Position numbers and translations under genes: made by a program. Below the pieces are notes generated by a model that saw nothing but the letters and a program-made list of their open reading frames with translations, had not been told where the DNA came from and searched no databases. This document shows, piece by piece, positions 8,995-29,827 of a stretch of 31,147 nucleotides of DNA (the stretch's first letter is position 1; every line of letters starts with the position of its first letter). Source of the DNA: a virus; the UHGV virus genome UHGV-0038737; one strand, 5' to 3'.

Positions 8995-9750
8995 TCAGCT
9001 CCTGATAAGAGATGTACCGGGGAAACCGCCAAACGGCAGCTCGTTGCTGTCTCCGTGCCGGAGCTTGCAGGCCGTCAGCGTGCCGTTGCAGACATCCAGC
9101 GATGGATCGTCAACCGGATTATTGTTTTTGTCGAAATAGCGCGTTCCGGCATAGTCGCAGCCGTCGCCGGTCCGGTACTTGTTCCGGATGCACCAGCTGC
9201 ATAACGAATGCAGCTGCCGCGTGGGTATCATCTGGCCCTGTAAATCCATCGGACTGGAAAGCGTAAATTCAACAGATTCATCCGTCTCGGTGCTTCTGGC
9301 ATCGATATAAAAGACCTTCAGCTTTTCCTGTGACGGGTCTGCAGTGGGATTGCCCTGCGGAAAATTTCTGGCGTCCAGATACTGTGCCAGCGTGTCGTGG
9401 ATACTCACTTTCGCCTGCAGCAGATCGTCATACGCCAGACAGAGCGCTGAGATCGAGCTGTCCAGGTTCGCCACACTCAGTTTTGGCTGTGGACTGGTAC
9501 CGTCCGTAGTCGCTTCAATACCCTCAACCTGACACGGCCAGGCTTTATACTCCTCCCCCTGCCACCAGATGGACTTCGCCGGAAGTTTATTCTCATCCCC
9601 GCCTGCAGCCTCAATCTCTTCCGGGGTATGCGCGATATTATGTGCGTGGAAGCGGAGTACATCTGACATACCGAACGCTGTGCCATCGACAGAAAAAAGC
9701 CGGACTTCATTGCCCGGCTCGAGTTTTTGATAATCAGCATTAAGACTCAT
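8995..9750 (-). CDS. L: Minor tail protein L
   Basis: 251 aa, gpL-like, with a C-terminal Cys cluster. ATGA overlap with the M stop. Confidence 0.9.
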   Translation of the reverse strand: MSLNADYQKLEPGNEVRLFSVDGTAFGMSDVLRFHAHNIAHTPEEIEAAGGDENKLPAKSIWWQGEEYKAWPCQVEGIEATTDGTSPQPKLSVANLDSSISALCLAYDDLLQAKVSIHDTLAQYLDARNFPQGNPTADPSQEKLKVFYIDARSTETDESVEFTLSSPMDLQGQMIPTRQLHSLCSWCIRNKYRTGDGCDYAGTRYFDKNNNPVDDPSLDVCNGTLTACKLRHGDSNELPFGGFPGTSLIRS

Positions 9751-17355: not shown

Positions 17356-17763
17356 TTAAACAGGCGTATTTAACAAATCGTCACCCGCTTCGGCAGAAGC
17401 GCTACCTGCCGTTATGGTGCCGGGTGCGGTTTCCATCAGACGATCCAGCGCGGTATCCGTACGCGCCTGAGCACTCAGAGGAGCCGCGGCAAGGATGCGC
17501 TGGGCACTTTCCACCGTCATCCCGGGCGTTTCCGCCAGCGCGCGCGCCTGTGATTCACGCCCTTTCGCCTCTTCACAGTTCAGGATCCCCATAATGCGAC
17601 CGTTTTCGGCTGCGACCGCCGCTGCCACCTGGCTGCTGATATCAACAGTTGCGCCCGCTGCAGGGTCAGTAACGACCGCAGCAGGCACGTCAACGGTGGT
17701 CACGGTCTGGTCAGCAGATGCTGCTGGTTGAGTGGTATCTGCGGATGCAGTAGTACCTTTCAT
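17356..17763 (-). CDS. Nu3: Scaffolding protein Nu3, in-frame internal start within C
   Basis: In-frame ATG at 17763 (MKGTTASAD...) preceded by GAGGAGGAA, giving about 135 aa co-terminal with C, as in lambda C/Nu3. Confidence 0.65.
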   Translation of the reverse strand: MKGTTASADTTQPAASADQTVTTVDVPAAVVTDPAAGATVDISSQVAAAVAAENGRIMGILNCEEAKGRESQARALAETPGMTVESAQRILAAAPLSAQARTDTALDRLMETAPGTITAGSASAEAGDDLLNTPV

Positions 17764-18693
17764 GCTTCCTCCTCGGGAAATCATCGTTCGTTTGTTAATT
17801 GCATCGCGCATAACGTTCAGCGCATCCATGTTGTTGACCAGCTGCTCCGCCAGGCCGTTGTCAACTGATTCCTGGCCTGAAAACACAGCTGCTTCAGTAT
17901 CAAGAACGGCCTGAACCGACATGCCGGTATAACCCGCCACCTTTTCAGCGAACATCTGCCGGGTAGCGTCGATACGCGCCTGAAAATCTGCGCGTACCTC
18001 TTTGGGTAATTTCTCGTAGGGGTTCCCGTCCACCTTGTGATCGCCGCTGTAAATCAGCGTGACCTCAACGCCGCTGGTTTTAAGGGCGGCGCCGTAATTG
18101 CTGTGGGCCATCATGACCCCGATGGATCCCGTTCTGGCCGTCTGGGTCACAAGCCGACGTGATGCCGCACTGGCAATCAGCTGGCCAGCGCTGCAGTTCA
18201 TATCGTTGGCTAACGCCCAGATGGGTTTGATATCCCGCATGCGGGCGATGATGTCCGCACAGTCAAAGGCACCCGCCACCATTCCACCTGGCGTATCCAT
18301 ATCCAGAAGAATGCCGTCTACACCCGGATCGCTGATTGCCTGCTGGAGGCGGGCGATGATGCCGTTGTACCCCGTCATCCCCGAATACGGCTGGAGTGAG
18401 CGGGTTTTACTGACCAGCGTCCCGGAAACAGGCAGCACCGCGATACCATCAGTAACCTGGTAGCTTCGCGCTGGTTTTGGGCCCATGTCCTCATCATCAC
18501 CAAAGAGAGCCAGCGGTTCAGCCATCTGCTCTGCACCTAGCGTCACGCCCGACACGGTGTCGGTCAGACGGGTGATACCTAACTGACCAGCGAGAGCACA
18601 AAAGAAAACCCGCGCATAGGCGGGTTCAAGTAAAAGCGGCTCATTGAAGGCCATACTGGCAATGTGCGGGAGATTACGCAGCTCTGGCGTCAT
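17356..18693 (-). CDS. C: Prohead protease C (S49/ClpP-like), with nested scaffold in its 3' third
   Basis: [36 protein letters not shown] matches the lambda gpC N-terminus. ATG at 18693 preceded by AGGAGG (the ORF track starts at 18708). Confidence 0.92.
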   Translation of the reverse strand: MTPELRNLPHIASMAFNEPLLLEPAYARVFFCALAGQLGITRLTDTVSGVTLGAEQMAEPLALFGDDEDMGPKPARSYQVTDGIAVLPVSGTLVSKTRSLQPYSGMTGYNGIIARLQQAISDPGVDGILLDMDTPGGMVAGAFDCADIIARMRDIKPIWALANDMNCSAGQLIASAASRRLVTQTARTGSIGVMMAHSNYGAALKTSGVEVTLIYSGDHKVDGNPYEKLPKEVRADFQARIDATRQMFAEKVAGYTGMSVQAVLDTEAAVFSGQESVDNGLAEQLVNNMDALNVMRDAINKRTMISRGGSMKGTTASADTTQPAASADQTVTTVDVPAAVVTDPAAGATVDISSQVAAAVAAENGRIMGILNCEEAKGRESQARALAETPGMTVESAQRILAAAPLSAQARTDTALDRLMETAPGTITAGSASAEAGDDLLNTPV

Positions 18694-20266
18694 CGGTCCC
18701 CTCCTCATTCGATTTTTTCAGTCCAGACTCAAAGGCCGAAGCCGCCCACGCTGGCGGTTTAAGTCCCGCTGCGCGACGCTCCATCGTTTCGCGAACCTGC
18801 TGGGCAAAGATTTCCTGATAATCTTCCCCCCGTTTGGCGCATTCCTTCTCATAGGTGCTCAGCCCAGCCTCAATGAGCATGACAGCCTCCTGCACCTCCT
18901 TCAGACCGTCAATGGCCATTCTCCCGGAGCCGATCCAGTCTGCATTTCCCCAGGCGCTTCTCGCCTCCTGAAAACTGAATCGGGCTTTAGACGGTAGTGT
19001 CACCACCCGGCGAACAATGGCCTCTTCCAGCCAGCATAAAAACATCTGACAGGCCTGGCGGGAGGCAACAAATTTGCGGCGCCCCATAAAGTACGCCCAG
19101 GACTCGTTAGCACTGGCGCGGGCGGTGGAATAACTCATCTGCGAATAGTTGCGAGAGAGTTGCTCATACGACACACCCAGCCCTGCAGCAATGTAGCGCA
19201 GCAGAGATTGTTCAAACGTCGAATAGCCGTTATCAGTATCCTGCGCTGACTGAAGATTCAGGGAGTCGCCCGGCATCAGATGCGGCACCTTCGCGCCGCC
19301 GAGACGAACCGGCGCAGCGGTATAGTACGAGGCCATCTCCCCCAGCCAGCCGGTCATCTTGCTTTGCTGCTCTTTACTGTCTGAGCCGAGAATAAAGTCC
19401 ATCGCGGTTTGCGTATCCAGCTCACTTTCAATCGTGGCGGCATACATCGCCTTGACAATCGCGCTCTGGAGCTGCGTATTCTGCAGTGTATCGAGCATTT
19501 TCATTTGCTCCATGACGCTGTAAAACACGTTAGCACCGCGTGTCTGCCCATCTTCCAGGGGTTCAAATACGTGGATAAAGGAAGGCCGCCCGCCTGGCAG
19601 CTCACGCGGGATGTAGGTCCACTTCTGCGCCATCCACCCCGGATAGCCATCTTCGCTGACGTAATATCCCAGCGCGGCGCCACTGTCATTTGTTCTGACC
19701 CCCGCCCGACAGTTTCGCGTGTCTCCGGCGTTATTGGGGTTGCTGATGCGTTTCGGGCTCACCATTTTGAACTGTGTGCGGAAAAGACGCGTGGAATCAC
19801 TGTCCCAGGTGGCCTGTGCACATAACTCACCGTTAAACGCATGCATGGATACACCTTCACGGATCATCATGGTGAATGTACGCTTACGTTCCGCATCAAT
19901 GCAGCAGCAATCATCCTCCGCAAATTCTTTCCAGGCCGCCTCAACTTCACGGGAGAACGCCCGGGCCTCTTCCTCTCCAATGCCAAGAAAACGCCAGCTG
20001 GGCCGATAACTGAGCCGGAAAAACGACCCTACAATGTGGTCCTGATGGAGCTGTACCGCGTTTGCCGCATAGCCGTTATTGCGGACCAGATCGTCAGCGC
20101 GCGCGTTACCACGGGAAAAATTAGGCAATAACGCAGCATCTGCGCTTTCACTCGGTGGATTCCAGGCGCGGAGCTGACCGCCAAAGCCACCAGCACCGCC
20201 ATGGTATCCGGCATAATCCCGCAGAGCGGTTTTACCGTCCGGTCCTAACAAAGCAGGTGTTTTCAT
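18674..20266 (-). CDS. B: Portal protein B
   Basis: 530 aa, lambda gpB-like, between W and C. Confidence 0.93.
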
Positions 20267-23515: not shown

Positions 23516-23799
23516 TACGCCAGTACGTATTCAGGTGTTGATGGATTGATGATAAATTTCTGCGCAGCTTCAGGTATGAGGCCATAGATAACATCAATGT
23601 GATAACCGTCCTTTAGGGTCGGCTCCTTTATCACATTTCCGGCCTCGTCATATTCACCGTCACTGTTATACAGAACGCCCCGCACAGAAAACTGAATAGA
23701 CTTAGTCGGTACTGCCCATCCAGCCCCCTCAGACCACCAACCAGTGGCTGCTCTCGCAGTAGCCTCATCAGGGAATCGTAAATATGTCAGCCTGCTCAT
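23515..23799 (-). CDS. Hypothetical protein (94 aa)
   Basis: ORF MSRLTYLRFPDEATARAATGWWSEGAGW... with start overlapping the stop of the upstream 356-aa gene. No family recognised. Confidence 0.5.
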   Translation of the reverse strand: MSRLTYLRFPDEATARAATGWWSEGAGWAVPTKSIQFSVRGVLYNSDGEYDEAGNVIKEPTLKDGYHIDVIYGLIPEAAQKFIINPSTPEYVLA

Positions 23800-24869
23800 T
23801 ATCTTATGTACTCGATTCGTTGGATGTAGCGCTTACCCCAGTCAGTCGTTGATGCTGGTATTTCAACCTCTTCTGCACCGCCAAAATCGATTTGCTTGGT
23901 CGTTGCGTCGCTATAGTGCAAACGCACAGAGGTTGCAATTCTGCTGGGGTTCTTGATGTTCGCAAAAGCCTTGGATCGTGTTGCAGCAGCGCTGGATGCA
24001 ATGATTGGTGATGTTGAACAGGGATTATCTTCAAGCTGCAGTGTTGCAAACTCCAGAGAATATGATGAATCTCCAACGTAGGTTTCGCCACCGGGTGTGA
24101 TACTGGTTGATGGCCCCATATAGATTATATAGGAAGGTGACTTTACGGATTTTGTCGCAATAACAGTCCCGGAAAACCGTATTACGCCGGGAGAGATAAA
24201 CTCTGCGGTTGTAGTGAGTCCATCAGAAATACCGGTGAATGACACTGACGCATCAGAGATATTTATTACAGATAAAATCTGCGCATCAACAATCAATTGG
24301 TGCGCTAAAATGACAAATGCATACCCTCTCGACTTCTCTGTTTTTTGAATAAAACCGCTAAAGCTGTACTTCTTTCCCGCCGTAACTTTCTGCGGACATG
24401 CAGCGTAGTGTGGCCCTTCCAAATTAGATTCTGTAAGCCTGAATGTCGGGGTATTCAGTATTCTTTCTGCGGAATTACTTATTGCCGCACGCACTGCCCC
24501 TACCCCCCCCGTATAGTAGGTGTTGGTCGCCTGCACTTCAGGCTCATGCCTTCCAACTGCCACACCATTTCGGTACTCAAGCGGCCATACGTCAGGTGCA
24601 GCGAACTGAATAGTTCCGTCAGCTGAGTAGTATGCATGGTTGCTTGCGCAGCTGAACGAAACCCGATAATCCAGTGCAGAGGAGGTAAGATCGATATCGC
24701 TAAGGTCAACCCACTCGCCAGGCGGCAGCGTCATAACATTAGCACCGGGAATAACTATGCCGGATGGAAAACTATCTGATGATGCGCCAAGCTCAGTCAC
24801 ATCAGGGATAAATAAGCCTTTCATAATTGCACCACAAGCGATGATAAATATTTCAAATAAAACCGGCAT
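23799..24869 (-). CDS. Hypothetical beta-rich protein (356 aa; start could be Met16 at 24824)
   Basis: Long ORF with Ser/Thr/Gly-rich composition and no recognisable catalytic or nucleotide-binding motif. Hydrophobic N-terminus. Contains an in-frame G8 tract. Confidence 0.55.
   Translation of the reverse strand: MPVLFEIFIIACGAIMKGLFIPDVTELGASSDSFPSGIVIPGANVMTLPPGEWVDLSDIDLTSSALDYRVSFSCASNHAYYSADGTIQFAAPDVWPLEYRNGVAVGRHEPEVQATNTYYTGGVGAVRAAISNSAERILNTPTFRLTESNLEGPHYAACPQKVTAGKKYSFSGFIQKTEKSRGYAFVILAHQLIVDAQILSVINISDASVSFTGISDGLTTTAEFISPGVIRFSGTVIATKSVKSPSYIIYMGPSTSITPGGETYVGDSSYSLEFATLQLEDNPCSTSPIIASSAAATRSKAFANIKNPSRIATSVRLHYSDATTKQIDFGGAEEVEIPASTTDWGKRYIQRIEYIR
24503..24510 (-). repeat. G8 homopolymer tract inside the 356-aa coding sequence
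   Basis: Coding strand ACG GGG GGG GTA (T-G-G-V). Eight consecutive G. Confidence 0.9.
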
Positions 24870-24923: not shown

Positions 24924-25181
24924 CTACTTCGTTTTTGCTTCCGCTCTTTTACGGCGGCGCTCTTCTTTCTTCTCGGCGTTTGCCATGTCCATGAATGCCT
25001 GCATGATCGAGTTCCTCATCATGTAACTTACAAAGTGATGATTGACGCAGCCGTTGAGACGGAGTTGCTCGCCAAACTGATCAACCGAGGCCAGCACCTG
25101 CATCATGTCCTTCTCACCTTTCATGAACTCTGAGAAGTCGCGCCCCGCTCTGGAGGCGCATTCTATTATTCGGGTGCTCAT
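24924..25181 (-). CDS. Hypothetical small protein with basic C-terminus (85 aa)
   Basis: ORF MSTRIIECASRAGRDFSEF...KKEERRRKRAEAKTK. ATG at 25181 overlaps the KilA-N gene stop (TGATCATGA). Confidence 0.45.
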   Translation of the reverse strand: MSTRIIECASRAGRDFSEFMKGEKDMMQVLASVDQFGEQLRLNGCVNHHFVSYMMRNSIMQAFMDMANAEKKEERRRKRAEAKTK

Positions 25182-25183
25182 GA

Positions 25184-25912
25184 TCAGGCCGCCGCATAGA
25201 GCAATTTCATCTGCCCTTTTACCTGGAATGCCGACATGCAACGCGCTTCGAAATCACGATAATCAGAGCACCCATTGGCAATGCTGGTAACGGCAATGAT
25301 CTGTCGCTCAACCAATGTCAGCGCGTCAGGTTTAAGGTGCTGATGGATTTTGTCTCCCGCAGCCAGCCGTCTTTTAACCTCTGCATATACTTCTGGTGGT
25401 AATACCGGGCCATATACCCACTTGGCACTGATCATCCCAAATAGTGCGGGGCGACGACCTGGTCGATGACGGGGCAGCCCTGACATTTTGAACATCGCAG
25501 AATAAAACGGATCGCTAAACCTCTTTTCCCATGGCTGAGATTTATCCAGAAGGAAAATAGCCTTTATTCTTTCATCGTCGATATGATGAACGGAACCCTG
25601 AATGATTGCGTCAATTTGCTCATCACACCAGATCTCAAAATCTACAGAAAGCCATCGAGCAAATCTGACCGCCAGTTTTGGGTGAAGCCATGTTCCGCCG
25701 CCACGGTCTTTGCGAGCGCGGCTGGTTTTTACATATGTGATATTCCCATATCTACTCTTTAACGCCTCGATGTAACGGACAGTCTCAGGAAGCCTAAGCC
25801 ACTGAGCCGGCTCCTTGTTGAACTTGTCAGCTGCCGCAGTCGCGTCAAACCAGCCATCGTCAGAAAAACGCATGGGATGGCCTTCGAAATCAATCGGGAT
25901 GATATTGGACAT
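25184..25912 (-). CDS. KilA-N domain protein (Bro-N/KilA-N N-terminus, P63C-like C-terminus)
   Basis: MSNIIPIDFEGHPMRFSDDGWFDATAAADKFNKEPAQWLRLPETVRYIEAL is a typical KilA-N N-terminus. The ORF track extends to 25987 and the upstream Met cannot be excluded. Confidence 0.7.
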   Translation of the reverse strand: MSNIIPIDFEGHPMRFSDDGWFDATAAADKFNKEPAQWLRLPETVRYIEALKSRYGNITYVKTSRARKDRGGGTWLHPKLAVRFARWLSVDFEIWCDEQIDAIIQGSVHHIDDERIKAIFLLDKSQPWEKRFSDPFYSAMFKMSGLPRHRPGRRPALFGMISAKWVYGPVLPPEVYAEVKRRLAAGDKIHQHLKPDALTLVERQIIAVTSIANGCSDYRDFEARCMSAFQVKGQMKLLYAAA

Positions 25913-26061
25913 CGTATTTACCTTTTTGGTGATATGAGCCAGTTCTCGCAGACATGGACAGCCCAAGAGCGGCACGATGTAAGCCACCGTCCTGTCTCTG
26001 TCTCATATCCCGAAAAGCTCTTGGTTGATATGCGCACGAGAATGCGCGGTTTACTGCGGAT

Positions 26062-26088
26062 ATAAAAAAGCCCCGCATAGGCGAGGCT
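26062..26088 (-). terminator. Rho-independent terminator after the protease gene
   Basis: Minus-strand RNA GCCUCGC-CUAU-GCGGGGC (one G-U pair) followed by UUUUUUAUAU, 19 nt after the stop at 26107. Confidence 0.55.
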
Positions 26089-26106
26089 GGAATCAGACAG
26101 GGGGGA

Positions 26107-27009
26107 TTAAGACTGGATATTCCAAATCATTGCGTTACCGTTATGATTTTCAATGATTTTTGCCAGTGGTGCTCCACCAAAAGAATGCATGTAGCTGTGA
26201 TGTATAGTCAAAACCAAATCTTGAAGTACTTGATCACTTTCAAGTTCGGTAACATTCAACCCAATTTTCTGCGCCTTATCAAAATGAATATGACGCGAGT
26301 GGGTATAGGTTGTGTGATGGTTGTTTAACTCTGAACAAACATGTGTTGCTTTTGATTCTGCCTCAGGATCATTATCAAACATGCCTGTCATAAGCCAATG
26401 CTTAACAATCTCATTTGCCCATTTGATTGCTTTCTCACACTCGCCGATGATCGTCGGGTTTAGCTTTTGAAGAATGAACTGCCACATCTGAACAGCTGCG
26501 GGATTTTGAAAAATTTCCGTCTGCGCACGATTCCATTCTTCAATGATGGCATGGGTGGAGAAACCGTTGAACTGAGGATCAATTGGGCCAATGTTGGACT
26601 GTTTACCCATGATGATTTCATTGGCACAACATGCAAGCATAGTTCCGCAGGACATTGAAATCATAGGAACAATTGCTCTGATGTTAGTTCCAAACTTCGA
26701 CCTTAAGTAATGCCCGATTGATTCCAAAGCGGCAATATCACCACCTGGAGTATGAAGTATCAAATCCAACCCTTTTGATACATCTAAACCATTGATGGCT
26801 GTCATCAACCCGTTCTTATCATCATCAGTCATCTGAGTAAGATGGCGTACTTCTGCACCACCATGCTGTAACCACCCTGAGTAATATGTGATTACATTTC
26901 TTCCAGTATGATTCGAAAGTTGAGATAAGTATTTACGGCGAACCTCATCCATAGGACTTTTATGGGCGAGAGCCGTTATCTCGCCCAGTACGTCGCTCCA
27001 ATTAGGCAT
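26107..27009 (-). CDS. ClpP-fold serine protease, SDH / S49-like family
   Basis: Motifs GLDLILHTPGGDIAALESIGHYLRSKFG, IRAIVPMISMSCGTMLACCANEIIMG and GPIDPQ are characteristic of the ClpP/crotonase-fold SDH serine proteinase family as recalled. AT-rich gene, translationally coupled to the upstream small ORF. Confidence 0.8.
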   Translation of the reverse strand: MPNWSDVLGEITALAHKSPMDEVRRKYLSQLSNHTGRNVITYYSGWLQHGGAEVRHLTQMTDDDKNGLMTAINGLDVSKGLDLILHTPGGDIAALESIGHYLRSKFGTNIRAIVPMISMSCGTMLACCANEIIMGKQSNIGPIDPQFNGFSTHAIIEEWNRAQTEIFQNPAAVQMWQFILQKLNPTIIGECEKAIKWANEIVKHWLMTGMFDNDPEAESKATHVCSELNNHHTTYTHSRHIHFDKAQKIGLNVTELESDQVLQDLVLTIHHSYMHSFGGAPLAKIIENHNGNAMIWNIQS

Positions 27010-27012
27010 AAA

Positions 27013-27213
27013 TCAGTACGTGTAAAGTTGATGACTTGTAGTTTGGTTTTGCTTCGATTGTGTAGCGGTACCTTGTGAGTACCAAACACCTGTGTTTCCA
27101 CTCGTACTAGTTTGCTGTGCCATTACACGAGAAGCGAAGTTGTTAACAGTTTCACCAGTCAACATTTCTGCCGGTTTGATATTGTAAACATCGTAGAACT
27201 CAGCTGGGGTCAT
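27013..27213 (-). CDS. Small protein (66 aa) with Gln/Ser/Thr-rich tail, first gene of the protease operon
   Basis: ORF MTPAEFYDVYNIKPAEMLTGETVNNFASRVMAQQTSTSGNTGVWYSQGTATQSKQNQTTSHQLYTY. Strong RBS AAAGGAG 8 nt upstream. Stop 3 nt before the protease ATG. Confidence 0.6.
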   Translation of the reverse strand: MTPAEFYDVYNIKPAEMLTGETVNNFASRVMAQQTSTSGNTGVWYSQGTATQSKQNQTTSHQLYTY

Positions 27214-27235
27214 AATGATAGCTCCTTTTATAGCG

Positions 27236-27296
27236 CTACATATAGTGCCTGTGCCAAGGGGGACATACTATATGTGCCATTGTTGTCATATTTAAA
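27236..27296 (-). promoter_or_regulatory. Putative promoter/operator region of the small-protein/protease operon
   Basis: Lies between an upstream terminator and the RBS. Contains repeated TGGCAC and ATATAGT-like motifs and candidate -35 (ATGACA) and -10 (TATAGT) elements. Exact promoter not resolved. Confidence 0.3.
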
Positions 27297-27302
27297 TGTG
27301 CA

Positions 27303-27324
27303 AAAAGCCTCAAAAGAGGCTTGA
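27303..27324 (-). terminator. Rho-independent terminator insulating the lysis cassette from the downstream moron
   Basis: Minus-strand RNA AAGCCUC-UUUU-GAGGCUU followed by UUUGCACAUUU. Confidence 0.5.
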
Positions 27325-27583
27325 AAAAGATGCAAAAATACTATCTATGACGTGACTATAGCTACTTACCCACAGTTTATACAAGCCAAAAATGCTAAAT
27401 TCAGATAATCCTATTCGCTGAAAAACTACACAAAAGCTACGTTCATCTTGTCATTAGATAACGTCAGTAACTTTCACTGGATCTAAGCCATTGGTGAAAA
27501 AGCTAATTGCATGATGAAGCACTGTAATGTAGCAGTTGAGGTTGTTAAATGAGAATCACCCTAACAATGTCAACGGACATTAT

Positions 27584-28099
27584 TCATTTTCGTAACTTCT
27601 CAATCTCTCGTATACCCGCCAGGTTATTGTTGCCCTTCTCAATAACAGCCAGCAAAGGTTCAATCCAGAGGACGGCCTGGCAATACGTCATTGAGCTGGC
27701 GGCAGCGGTACTATCATCGGTTGCGTTAGTGTTCCCGGTATCGGGGTGCATTGCGCTGGCACGTAAACGGTACGCGTATTTGAGCAGCCCACCAGCGACA
27801 TCAGCAGGAACAGGCAGATCACAGGTCTTTTCACGTCGGAGAATCTCCCGGTATTCGATGACAGTTTCTTCGGTGCTGGTGTCGATCAGGGAGTTTAGCC
27901 TGTTGGCATGTTCTGCAACCTGATTGAATCGATTGAAGTTGAATGCCTGGGTGGCGATCACCTGCCCCTGCATAGAGTTGTCACTTCGCAGAACGTCGTT
28001 ATCGCTCTGAAGGCGACTGGCGTTGGAGCAACTCTTAGCGAGAGCGACCGAAAGGACAGCAATAACAACAACGCCTATAAGACCCGGATTAATTTTCAT
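27584..28099 (-). CDS. Rz: Rz-like inner-membrane spanin (i-spanin)
   Basis: MKINPGLIGVVVIAVLSVALA N-terminal transmembrane segment then coiled-coil-like region. Starts 1 nt after the endolysin stop. Confidence 0.75.
   Translation of the reverse strand: MKINPGLIGVVVIAVLSVALAKSCSNASRLQSDNDVLRSDNSMQGQVIATQAFNFNRFNQVAEHANRLNSLIDTSTEETVIEYREILRREKTCDLPVPADVAGGLLKYAYRLRASAMHPDTGNTNATDDSTAAASSMTYCQAVLWIEPLLAVIEKGNNNLAGIREIEKLRK
27688..27834 (-). CDS. Rz1: Rz1-like outer-membrane lipoprotein spanin (o-spanin), embedded in Rz, GTG start
   Basis: In the +1 frame inside Rz: (M)KRPVICLFLLMSLVGCSNTRTVYVPAQCTPIPGTLTQPMIVPLPPAQ*, with lipobox LVG-C, Pro-rich mature part and GGGAG upstream. Found by hand translation; not in the ORF track. 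Confidence 0.6.
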   Translation of the reverse strand: MKRPVICLFLLMSLVGCSNTRTVYVPAQCTPIPGTLTQPMIVPLPPAQ

Positions 28100-29329: not shown

Positions 29330-29827
29330 GTGAACAATTTTATTCAAGCTTTAGATGTTTCGATTAAAACCCAAAATTGGTACTCAGTATTATTTATATC
29401 GCTTACGCTGCCAGACATTTTCGGGAAGATTGATGAACCAAACAAAGGATCGCAGGCAAGAACTGTTAATTGGTACAACAAGTACATGAAAGATATGTAT
29501 ACACATCATATCGGCCCCGATCGCCTAGAGCATACATTCCTAAGCGGCAACGACTTTTATGCACTTCGCTGCGCATATCTTCACGAAGGAAGTGACGATA
29601 TTAGAAATCAGAGTGCTCAAGATGTTTTAGAAAAATTTGAATTCGTCCAGCCAATAAGTAATCAAAGCCTACACTGCAACCAATTTAATCAAATGCTTCT
29701 ACTGCAGGTTGATCGATTTGGGAAAGATGTGATGTCAGCTGTTGGCTCATGGCTAAAAGATATTGAGGGTGATGTAGAAAAAACAAACAAACTCAATGAG
29801 TTATTAAAAATAAAAATAATACCATGA
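29330..29827 (+). CDS. Hypothetical 165-aa protein, antisense AT-rich moron between Q and the holin; possible HEPN-like fold
   Basis: GTG start with AAAGGA RBS. Very AT-rich relative to flanking phage DNA. Contains an R-x4-H motif (R80-CAYL-H85). Confidence 0.55.
   Translation: MNNFIQALDVSIKTQNWYSVLFISLTLPDIFGKIDEPNKGSQARTVNWYNKYMKDMYTHHIGPDRLEHTFLSGNDFYALRCAYLHEGSDDIRNQSAQDVLEKFEFVQPISNQSLHCNQFNQMLLLQVDRFGKDVMSAVGSWLKDIEGDVEKTNKLNELLKIKIIP

Follow-up and report, generated by a model that had tools for sequence, protein, structure and literature searches.

The virus genome UHGV-0038737 carries, in the late region of an E. coli lambdoid prophage, a cassette of two tandem open reading frames (ORFs) that encode a small protein of 66 amino acids (aa) and an SDH-type serine protease of 300 aa. 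The window analysed here is the whole 31,147-nt stretch of this genome, and all coordinates are window positions. Our best explanation, which we hold with about even confidence, is that the cassette is a self-contained, horizontally mobile two-gene cargo of prophages (a "moron") and most likely works as an anti-phage system or one of the abortive-infection type. This reading rests on the combination of a conserved enzyme and a fast-evolving partner in a mobile module, a pattern typical of both defence and toxin-antitoxin (TA) systems.

The cassette is an insertion carried by mobile elements

The preliminary description of this DNA had placed a two-gene unit between the lysis cassette and a KilA-N gene, and both ORFs are found there on the minus strand, each starting with ATG and the 66-aa frame preceding the 300-aa one. 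The genes for the Q antiterminator, a holin, a lysozyme and an Rz-like protein lie 5' of the cassette, and the KilA-N gene lies 3' of it, followed by the genes for the terminase, the portal and the S49 head protease. The AT-richness noted at that stage was reproduced, with a GC content of 0.37-0.43 over 26000-27600 versus 0.48-0.54 in both flanks.

Comparison with related phages shows the cassette to be an insertion into an HK97-like late region between Rz and the terminator/KilA-N gene. In HK97-like phages without the cassette, Rz directly abuts a terminator that is the same as that at 26062-26088, and the KilA-N gene follows with nothing between. Relative to HK97, the window holds about 1.4 kb extra at the Rz/terminator-KilA-N junction, and HK97, HK022 and the mEp phages share with the window only 26000-26088. 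The cassette is present in 42 of the 5426 complete E. coli genomes, and homology breaks sharply at 26062/26063; in variants of 80-83% identity from other contexts, the match starts at 26062 and extends to about 27400-27433. The mobile unit is about 1.35-1.4 kb long and spans this interval, so that the 26062 edge given earlier stands and the upstream edge has to be moved about 70-100 nt farther out. The terminator at 26062-26088 is also found at the end of cassette copies in unrelated contexts, and the insertion may have used it as a recombination junction.

Cassette variants of 70-83% identity occupy other sites in E. coli prophages, which makes at least three in all. One of these, seen in E. 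coli Nissle 1917 and an O21:H9 strain, lies between Q and a DNA methyltransferase/holin; the Nissle 1917 copy (L171, NZ_CP022686 454923-456041, 70% nucleotide identity) stands in a lambdoid prophage between Q and the DNA methyltransferase. At another E. coli prophage site, the cassette is flanked by the lysis or bor region on one side and the small terminase subunit on the other, and an Enterobacter homologue sits between a Q-like antiterminator and a holin. The pair was also found at a prophage end adjoining an integrase in Pseudomonas and next to a Methylomonas resolvase. Among phages of other hosts, it follows the late activator C in a Mu-like phage of Shewanella, adjoins HicAB in those of Porphyromonas, and comes behind the tail genes in Gordonia phage BeeGee.

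A survey of the two nearest genes on each side at about 40 genome loci from many phyla identified integrase as the commonest neighbour (7 occurrences), together with methyltransferases, AAA_21 ATPases, resolvases, phage lysis genes, and a single BrxL and HindIII. No third gene was conserved beside the pair among these neighbours. Because the neighbours vary and no third gene is conserved, we conclude that the pair is autonomous cargo of mobile elements. One candidate copy borne on a phage-inducible chromosomal island (PICI), L104 from IMG/VR contigs, was rejected since it is a prophage fragment.

The moron concept was defined on HK97 and HK022 by Juhala, Hendrix and colleagues, with bor, lom and stx as examples. 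Like the lambdoid morons, the window cassette is inserted between genes that are adjacent in relatives, and has its own conserved (predicted) promoter, its own terminator and a deviant base composition. It differs from them in that its genes are a coupled pair and that a structured leader, which includes a terminator-like hairpin, separates them from the promoter.

The large product belongs to a tightly conserved subfamily of SDH-type proteases

Pfam family PF01972, formerly DUF114 or SDH_sah, comprises ClpP-like SDH-type serine proteinases. The 300-aa protein, which had been proposed to be a ClpP-fold protease of the SDH family, was placed there by the profile search, with a match over residues 22-255 well above the gathering cut-off (E 8.4e-23; 81.2 bits versus 31.3). 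It also matches phrog_11747, of unknown function, at 2e-138, and its RefSeq product name is "SDH family Clp fold serine proteinase". Its score against the NCBIfam equivalog NF047768 (Clp_like_SDH) is 95.9 bits, below the cut-off of 250; no match to PF00574 or PF01343 was obtained, and TIGR00706 gave 16 bits against a cut-off of 155. The four ClpP/S49-type motifs pointed out earlier (LILHTPGG, IRAIVP, SMSCGTM and GPIDPQ) are all present. Among 20 homologues at 55-100% identity, Ser120 (in MSxGT), Asp144 (in GPxDPQ), and His237, Arg239 and His240 (in HxRH) are invariant. The Ser, Asp and His residues follow each other in the PF01972 order along the sequence, and we propose Ser120, Asp144 and His240 (or His237) as the putative catalytic set.

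An AlphaFold model of the protease was built from 20 sequences, with a predicted local distance difference test (pLDDT) score of 86.6 and a predicted template modelling (pTM) score of 0.85. Its closest folds in the PDB are B. subtilis SppA (4kwb and 3rst) and various ClpP structures, at 11-17% identity and a Foldseek E of about 5e-3. According to the model, the protein has a ClpP-type core to which a helical region (about residues 152-230) is added. By sequence, it is related to no solved structure, and no member of its subfamily has one. The ClpP/crotonase-like core, at the level of the fold only, is common to the window protease, to ClpP (S14), and to SppA and the lambda C-type proteases (S49). 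In contrast to ClpP and SppA, the window protease has the extra helical region, another order of catalytic residues and no match above the cut-off to their family hidden Markov models; unlike the S49 phage proteases, it is not encoded beside portal and capsid genes.

The subfamily gathers more than 8000 database matches and, at E<=1e-30, 350 clusters at 50% identity. Its loci, none less than 49% identical, come from many bacterial phyla and from Methanosarcinales archaea, and the subfamily occurs in 200 viral contigs and only seven deposited phage genomes. As judged by sequence comparison, the protease represents a distinct, very tightly conserved PF01972 subfamily. Natural fusions of protease and partner were looked for among 120 homologues and none was found; the longer proteins are explained by start-site or C-terminal Gln/Pro-rich extensions.

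The small partner accompanies the protease and changes faster

A short upstream ORF accompanies the protease gene in 150 of the 157 loci of a co-occurrence survey, and it typically ends -29 to +15 nt from the protease start. This recurrence, together with the purifying selection described below, upholds the earlier claim of a coupled small partner. In the window, the TGA stop codon of the small ORF is followed by TTT and then by the ATG of the protease, and no separate Shine-Dalgarno sequence is seen before this ATG when the sequence is read. Because of this junction and the missing Shine-Dalgarno sequence, the arrangement fits translational coupling of the two genes. The two window ORFs also share a frame, with TGA TTT alone between them (27010-27015), and read-through of the UGA would yield a 368-aa fusion. 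The in-frame arrangement is probably a coincidence, since neither spacing nor frame is conserved at other loci.

The partner matches phrog_25714, of unknown function, at 4e-44. It has no match in Pfam, NCBIfam, PADLOC or the PDB, even when Pfam and the PDB were searched with the whole family, and no DNA-binding fold or family was detected by profile and structure-database searches. Its features are an N-terminal F/Y..(F/Y)(G/N)I motif, a helix at about residues 23-36, a disordered tail rich in Gln, Ser and Thr, and a C-terminal LYTY. A V.YS..T motif (V-W-Y-S-Q-G-T in the window) is near-invariant, and Tyr45 is nearly invariant within the family; in most partners, a short hydrophobic strand and then Ser/Thr residues are found near the C-terminus. 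Modelled alone, the partner forms two short helices and a disordered tail, with a pLDDT of 58 that falls below 50 for residues 45-65. The very end of the protein (27013-27027) reads (L/M)Y(S/T)Y in all enterobacterial variants (L003-L132), and the tail before it is variable. This ending resembles the internal V.YS motif, and it might act as a second site for protease binding or as a degron.

Iterative profile searches with the 119 unique upstream ORFs placed 52 in the family of the window partner and 32 in a second family, with several small families besides. The family of the window partner covers Pseudomonas, Methylomonas, Nitrospirae, Clostridia, Elusimicrobia and Methanosarcinaceae. The two large families have only an N-terminal motif in common (hydrophobic-x-x-hydrophobic-F/Y-x-x-L/F-G/N-L/I), and because the similarity found by hhalign is limited to its 15 residues, a common ancestry of all partners is not established. 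At seven loci (L028, L034, L058, L070, L156, L159 and L167), mostly from Lachnospiraceae/Clostridia, no ORF of at least 30 aa ends near the protease start. At a handful of further loci the upstream ORFs are implausible, and some Firmicutes proteases carry Gln/Pro-rich C-terminal extensions.

The ratio of nonsynonymous to synonymous substitution rates (dN/dS) is 0.04-0.14 for the partner and 0.01-0.03 for the protease, and amino acids change 3-4 times faster in the partner. Synonymous sites are near saturation even between copies with 97% identical proteases. The partner ORF is under purifying selection, and the protease extremely so. In the locus identical to the window (L001, NZ_CP029242), the partner ORF at 9014-9214 is left unannotated by RefSeq; the homologous ORF is annotated as hypothetical in Nissle 1917 and EC14 (L171 and L172) and is called in only some of the metagenomic loci. 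The two-gene nature of the system is hidden in the records where gene callers missed the partner.

Predicted promoter and leader of the cassette

The features of the cassette are listed in Table 1; among them is the strong ribosome-binding site that had been noted before the small ORF. Overall identity among the 13 cassette variants is only 66-83%; 10 of them keep the pattern TTGnnn-N18-(C)TATAGT, and the other three have TTGCAn-N19-TATTTA/TATATT. From this conservation, we infer that 27384-27355 functions as a promoter. A generic promoter scan missed it because the -35 element matches at just 3 of 6 positions. The promoter spacer holds TGTGGGTAA (27374-27366, minus strand), which is one mismatch away from the complement of a DnaA box, TGTGGATAA. 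A perfect DnaA box occurs in variants L012, L126 and L118, and L012 has a second box, TTATCCACA, just 3' of the -10 element. Going by these sites, control of the cassette promoter by DnaA is possible.

Table 1 Features of the two-gene cassette and its leader in the window, in the direction of transcription.
Feature	Position	Strand	Details and basis
Candidate sigma-70-type promoter	27355..27384	-	-35 TTGTAT 27384-27379, 18-nt spacer, -10 TATAGT 27360-27355
Leader hairpin, terminator-like	27302..27322	-	AAGCCTC-TTTT-GAGGCTT + five T; stem 27322-27305; about 25 nt past predicted start
Inverted repeat, box 1 GCACATATAGTA / box 2 CACTATATGTAG	27277-27266 / 27247-27236	-	18-nt spacer; ends about 22 nt before ATG
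Shine-Dalgarno sequence of small ORF	27222..27227	-	AAGGAG; 8 nt before ATG; read from sequence
Small partner gene, 66 aa	27013..27213	-	ORF list, phrog_25714 match, dN/dS
SDH-type ClpP-fold serine protease gene, 300 aa	26107..27009	-	PF01972, phrog_11747
Downstream intrinsic terminator	26062..26088	-	Stem-loop AGCCTCGCCTATGCGGGGCT 26088-26069, T-run to 26062; terminator scan

Intrinsic terminators had been proposed on both sides of the unit. The downstream one stands; the 5' hairpin belongs to the leader and lies inside the cassette's own transcript, because the conserved promoter stands 5' of it. This hairpin is kept in the 13 cassette variants, with 7 pairs in the consensus fold, 4 of which show compensatory changes, and its stem (27322-27305) was not flagged by the terminator scan. 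It looks like an attenuator or a 5' structure, and unmodified transcription that comes in from Rz may be stopped there as well. The predicted fold of the whole leader is somewhat better than those of shuffled sequences (z-score -2.39). A second terminator-like hairpin, AAGCCCGAGG...CCTTGGGCTTTTT (29917-29890, minus strand), is located about 80-110 nt 3' of the Q stop codon and is probably the tR' of the late operon; its layout resembles the promoter-hairpin leader of the cassette.

An inverted repeat separates the leader hairpin from the Shine-Dalgarno sequence of the small ORF. Across 16 variants, 86.5% of the cells are paired, versus 15-54% when the partner columns are slid, and five pairs change on both sides. 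The spacer between the boxes is constant at 17-18 nt across the enterobacterial variants, and the repeat is found in the enterobacterial clade only. It may be an operator or a stem of the 5' untranslated region. As an RNA element it was rejected, for the region alone folds no better than shuffled sequences (z-score 0.04) and has no Rfam match; as a general operator it was rejected because of its absence outside the enterobacterial clade. Box 1 was matched as a -10 element by the promoter scan, and this was rejected as a general feature since the critical second position varies among the variants.

Other features of the window

A second AT-rich unit (29330-29827, plus strand; GC about 0.35-0.40) is located between the Q/tR' region and the holin, on the strand opposite to both, and looks like another moron. 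Its ORF encodes 165 aa and matches phrog_18591 (unknown function) at 7e-47, with no Pfam match and a faint JetD-like PADLOC match (E 0.019). In the interval from the KilA-N gene to the small terminase gene, further minus-strand ORFs without a Pfam match were observed at 23799-24869 and 24924-25241. One ORF of this interval is annotated by RefSeq as having a "phage head spike fiber domain", and the place is odd for such a gene.

Discussion

Among defence, anti-defence and lysogenic conversion, the context favours a defence or TA-like role for the cassette. In the mechanism that we propose, the protease would be the effector and the small protein its cognate regulator, with translational coupling keeping the two in fixed proportion. 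The conserved N-terminal motif of the partner would dock onto the conserved protease, and its V.YS..T segment and disordered Ser/Thr/Gln tail could fill or guard the active site in the manner of a pseudo-substrate, or serve as bait. Infection would then remove or titrate the partner, and the freed protease would cleave host or phage proteins. A pseudo-substrate or bait is suggested because the genes are coupled and the partner combines a docking-like motif, an extended Ser/Thr-rich segment and a disordered tail. The leader hairpin would hold expression low in the lysogen, and the Q-modified late polymerase would read through it.

Several observations weigh against a defence role of this kind. 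No family of PADLOC v2.0.0 matches either protein (E<=0.1), and full-text literature searches returned nothing on this pair. About 7-15 loci, mostly from Clostridia, have no recognisable partner ORF, and the partner alone folds with low confidence. With a terminator-like hairpin just past the promoter, the lysogen may express the genes only weakly. Furthermore, the cassette stands in the late region and on the late strand, a position equally compatible with lytic-cycle expression and a role that benefits the phage.

A bolder form of the defence reading, which we consider rather improbable, is an ancient "guarded protease" immune module of bacteria and archaea, in which a self-compartmentalising ClpP-fold protease, near-invariant in sequence, would be shut by a hypervariable bait. 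The conserved N-terminal F..LGL/FNI motif would anchor the bait, with its V.YS..T strand inserted into the active site; a phage factor that binds or destroys the bait would release the promiscuous protease, and the infection would be aborted. The rapid divergence of the bait would in that case record an arms race with phage triggers, and the attenuator-type leader of the enterobacterial copies would be a second layer tying expression to late antitermination.

The main rival of the defence reading, in our judgement an unlikely one, is a phage-beneficial late function. The cassette would then be expressed late under Q antitermination, its protease would degrade host defence proteins, competitor proteins or a lysis regulator, and the partner would be an adaptor or a timer. 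The examined enterobacterial and Mu-like copies all lie in the late region and on the late strand, either by the lysis genes or between these and the late activator, and the leader, with a promoter and then a terminator, recalls the pR'-tR' layout, by which downstream genes come to depend on antitermination; the Q-proximal hairpin at 29917-29890 is comparable. However, the module is also found away from late operons: its neighbours may be integrases or resolvases, and it occurs in chromosomal contexts in archaea and many bacteria. It has a predicted sigma-70 promoter of its own that is conserved, unlike most purely late genes, and its presence in only 42 of 5426 E. coli genomes means that it is dispensable for this phage type. 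A pure TA or addiction module, with the protease as the toxin, the small protein as a labile antitoxin, and stabilisation of the mobile element rather than the blocking of phages as its main role, seems to us less probable still. Its layout is that of a type II system: a small, less conserved gene overlaps or abuts the enzyme gene downstream of it, and the small product is structured at the N-terminus and disordered in its C-terminal tail. The conserved inverted repeat, close to the translation start, could serve for autoregulation as an operator, one copy of the pair adjoins HicAB, and the TA pair IetAS, a serine protease toxin with an AAA ATPase and anti-phage activity (PMC13069673), provides a protease-toxin precedent. 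In contrast to what a type II antitoxin would suggest, no DNA-binding fold or family is detectable in the partner, its window copy is not basic, and the inverted repeat is specific to the enterobacterial clade. This explanation overlaps with the defence reading, because TA and defence roles are not mutually exclusive.

Two further explanations concern the partner as a substrate. It might be a leader-core peptide that the protease cleaves to release a bioactive or signalling peptide. Its conserved "leader-like" N-terminal motif (F..LGL/FNI) and variable C-terminal part rich in Ser, Thr and Cys would suit such a precursor. We nevertheless find this very improbable: no gene for a modification enzyme, an exporter or a receptor is conserved nearby, neither protein has an obvious N-terminal signal sequence on reading, and the arrangement is the same in Gram-positive and Gram-negative bacteria as in archaea. 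The possibility that the enzyme is a second morphogenetic (prohead or scaffold) protease, encoded with its substrate, is largely refuted, and we give it almost no credence. A weak similarity to head-maturation profiles exists (phrog_53 at 6e-5; Clp_rel_HeadMat at 20.9 bits versus a cut-off of 120). Against this, the phage already encodes its own canonical Peptidase_S49 head protease (17356..18708) adjoining the portal gene, the cassette is absent from close HK97-like relatives, and it occupies variable, non-structural sites as well as non-phage contexts. The same facts agree with the preliminary description in making the window enzyme an accessory protease, and the analysis led neither to a non-protease family nor to a core component of morphogenesis.

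For comparison with known systems, the closest by description is the DefenseFinder entry FS_HP_SDH_sah, which is reportedly an experimentally supported, PICI-encoded anti-phage pair of a hypothetical protein and an SDH_sah (PF01972) protein and is said to go back to work by Fillol-Salom and colleagues in Cell in 2022. We know of no published mechanism for it, and its name did not occur as that of a defence system in the full text searched; two recent defence-discovery papers mention no such protease. Like this entry as described, the window pair consists of a PF01972 protein and an adjacent uncharacterised partner on a phage-related element of Enterobacteria; unlike it, the window copy lies in a lambdoid prophage rather than a PICI, the two being compared by description only. 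The window cassette is probably a new member of the FS_HP_SDH_sah kind. The earlier statement that the pairing had no described function holds in so far as the full-text searches found no paper on it, and is probably outdated in view of this entry.

The Lit protein of e14 is a protease carried on a mobile element. With Lit and IetAS, the cassette may share the idea of a protease effector on a mobile element that is restrained until triggered. Their folds are those of a metalloprotease and a subtilase, respectively, and are unrelated to the ClpP fold of the window protease; moreover, partners of the window type are proteins of 55-90 aa and no ATPase, in contrast to that of IetAS.

What is new here is the pairing as a conserved module, the contrast between a fast-changing partner and a near-invariant protease, the multiple insertion sites, and the cassette's own promoter and leader. 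The near-universal and often unannotated partner with its two mutable short motifs, the putative catalytic residues, and the predicted promoter and leader offer handles on the system, and the related copy in E. coli Nissle 1917 makes a tractable and medically relevant host available for its study. The module has spread through many bacterial phyla and into methanogenic archaea, and a protease that stays at least 49% identical everywhere is unusual in its conservation. If the defence reading is true, the cassette, with about 1.1 kb of coding sequence, would be among the simplest protease-based immune modules.

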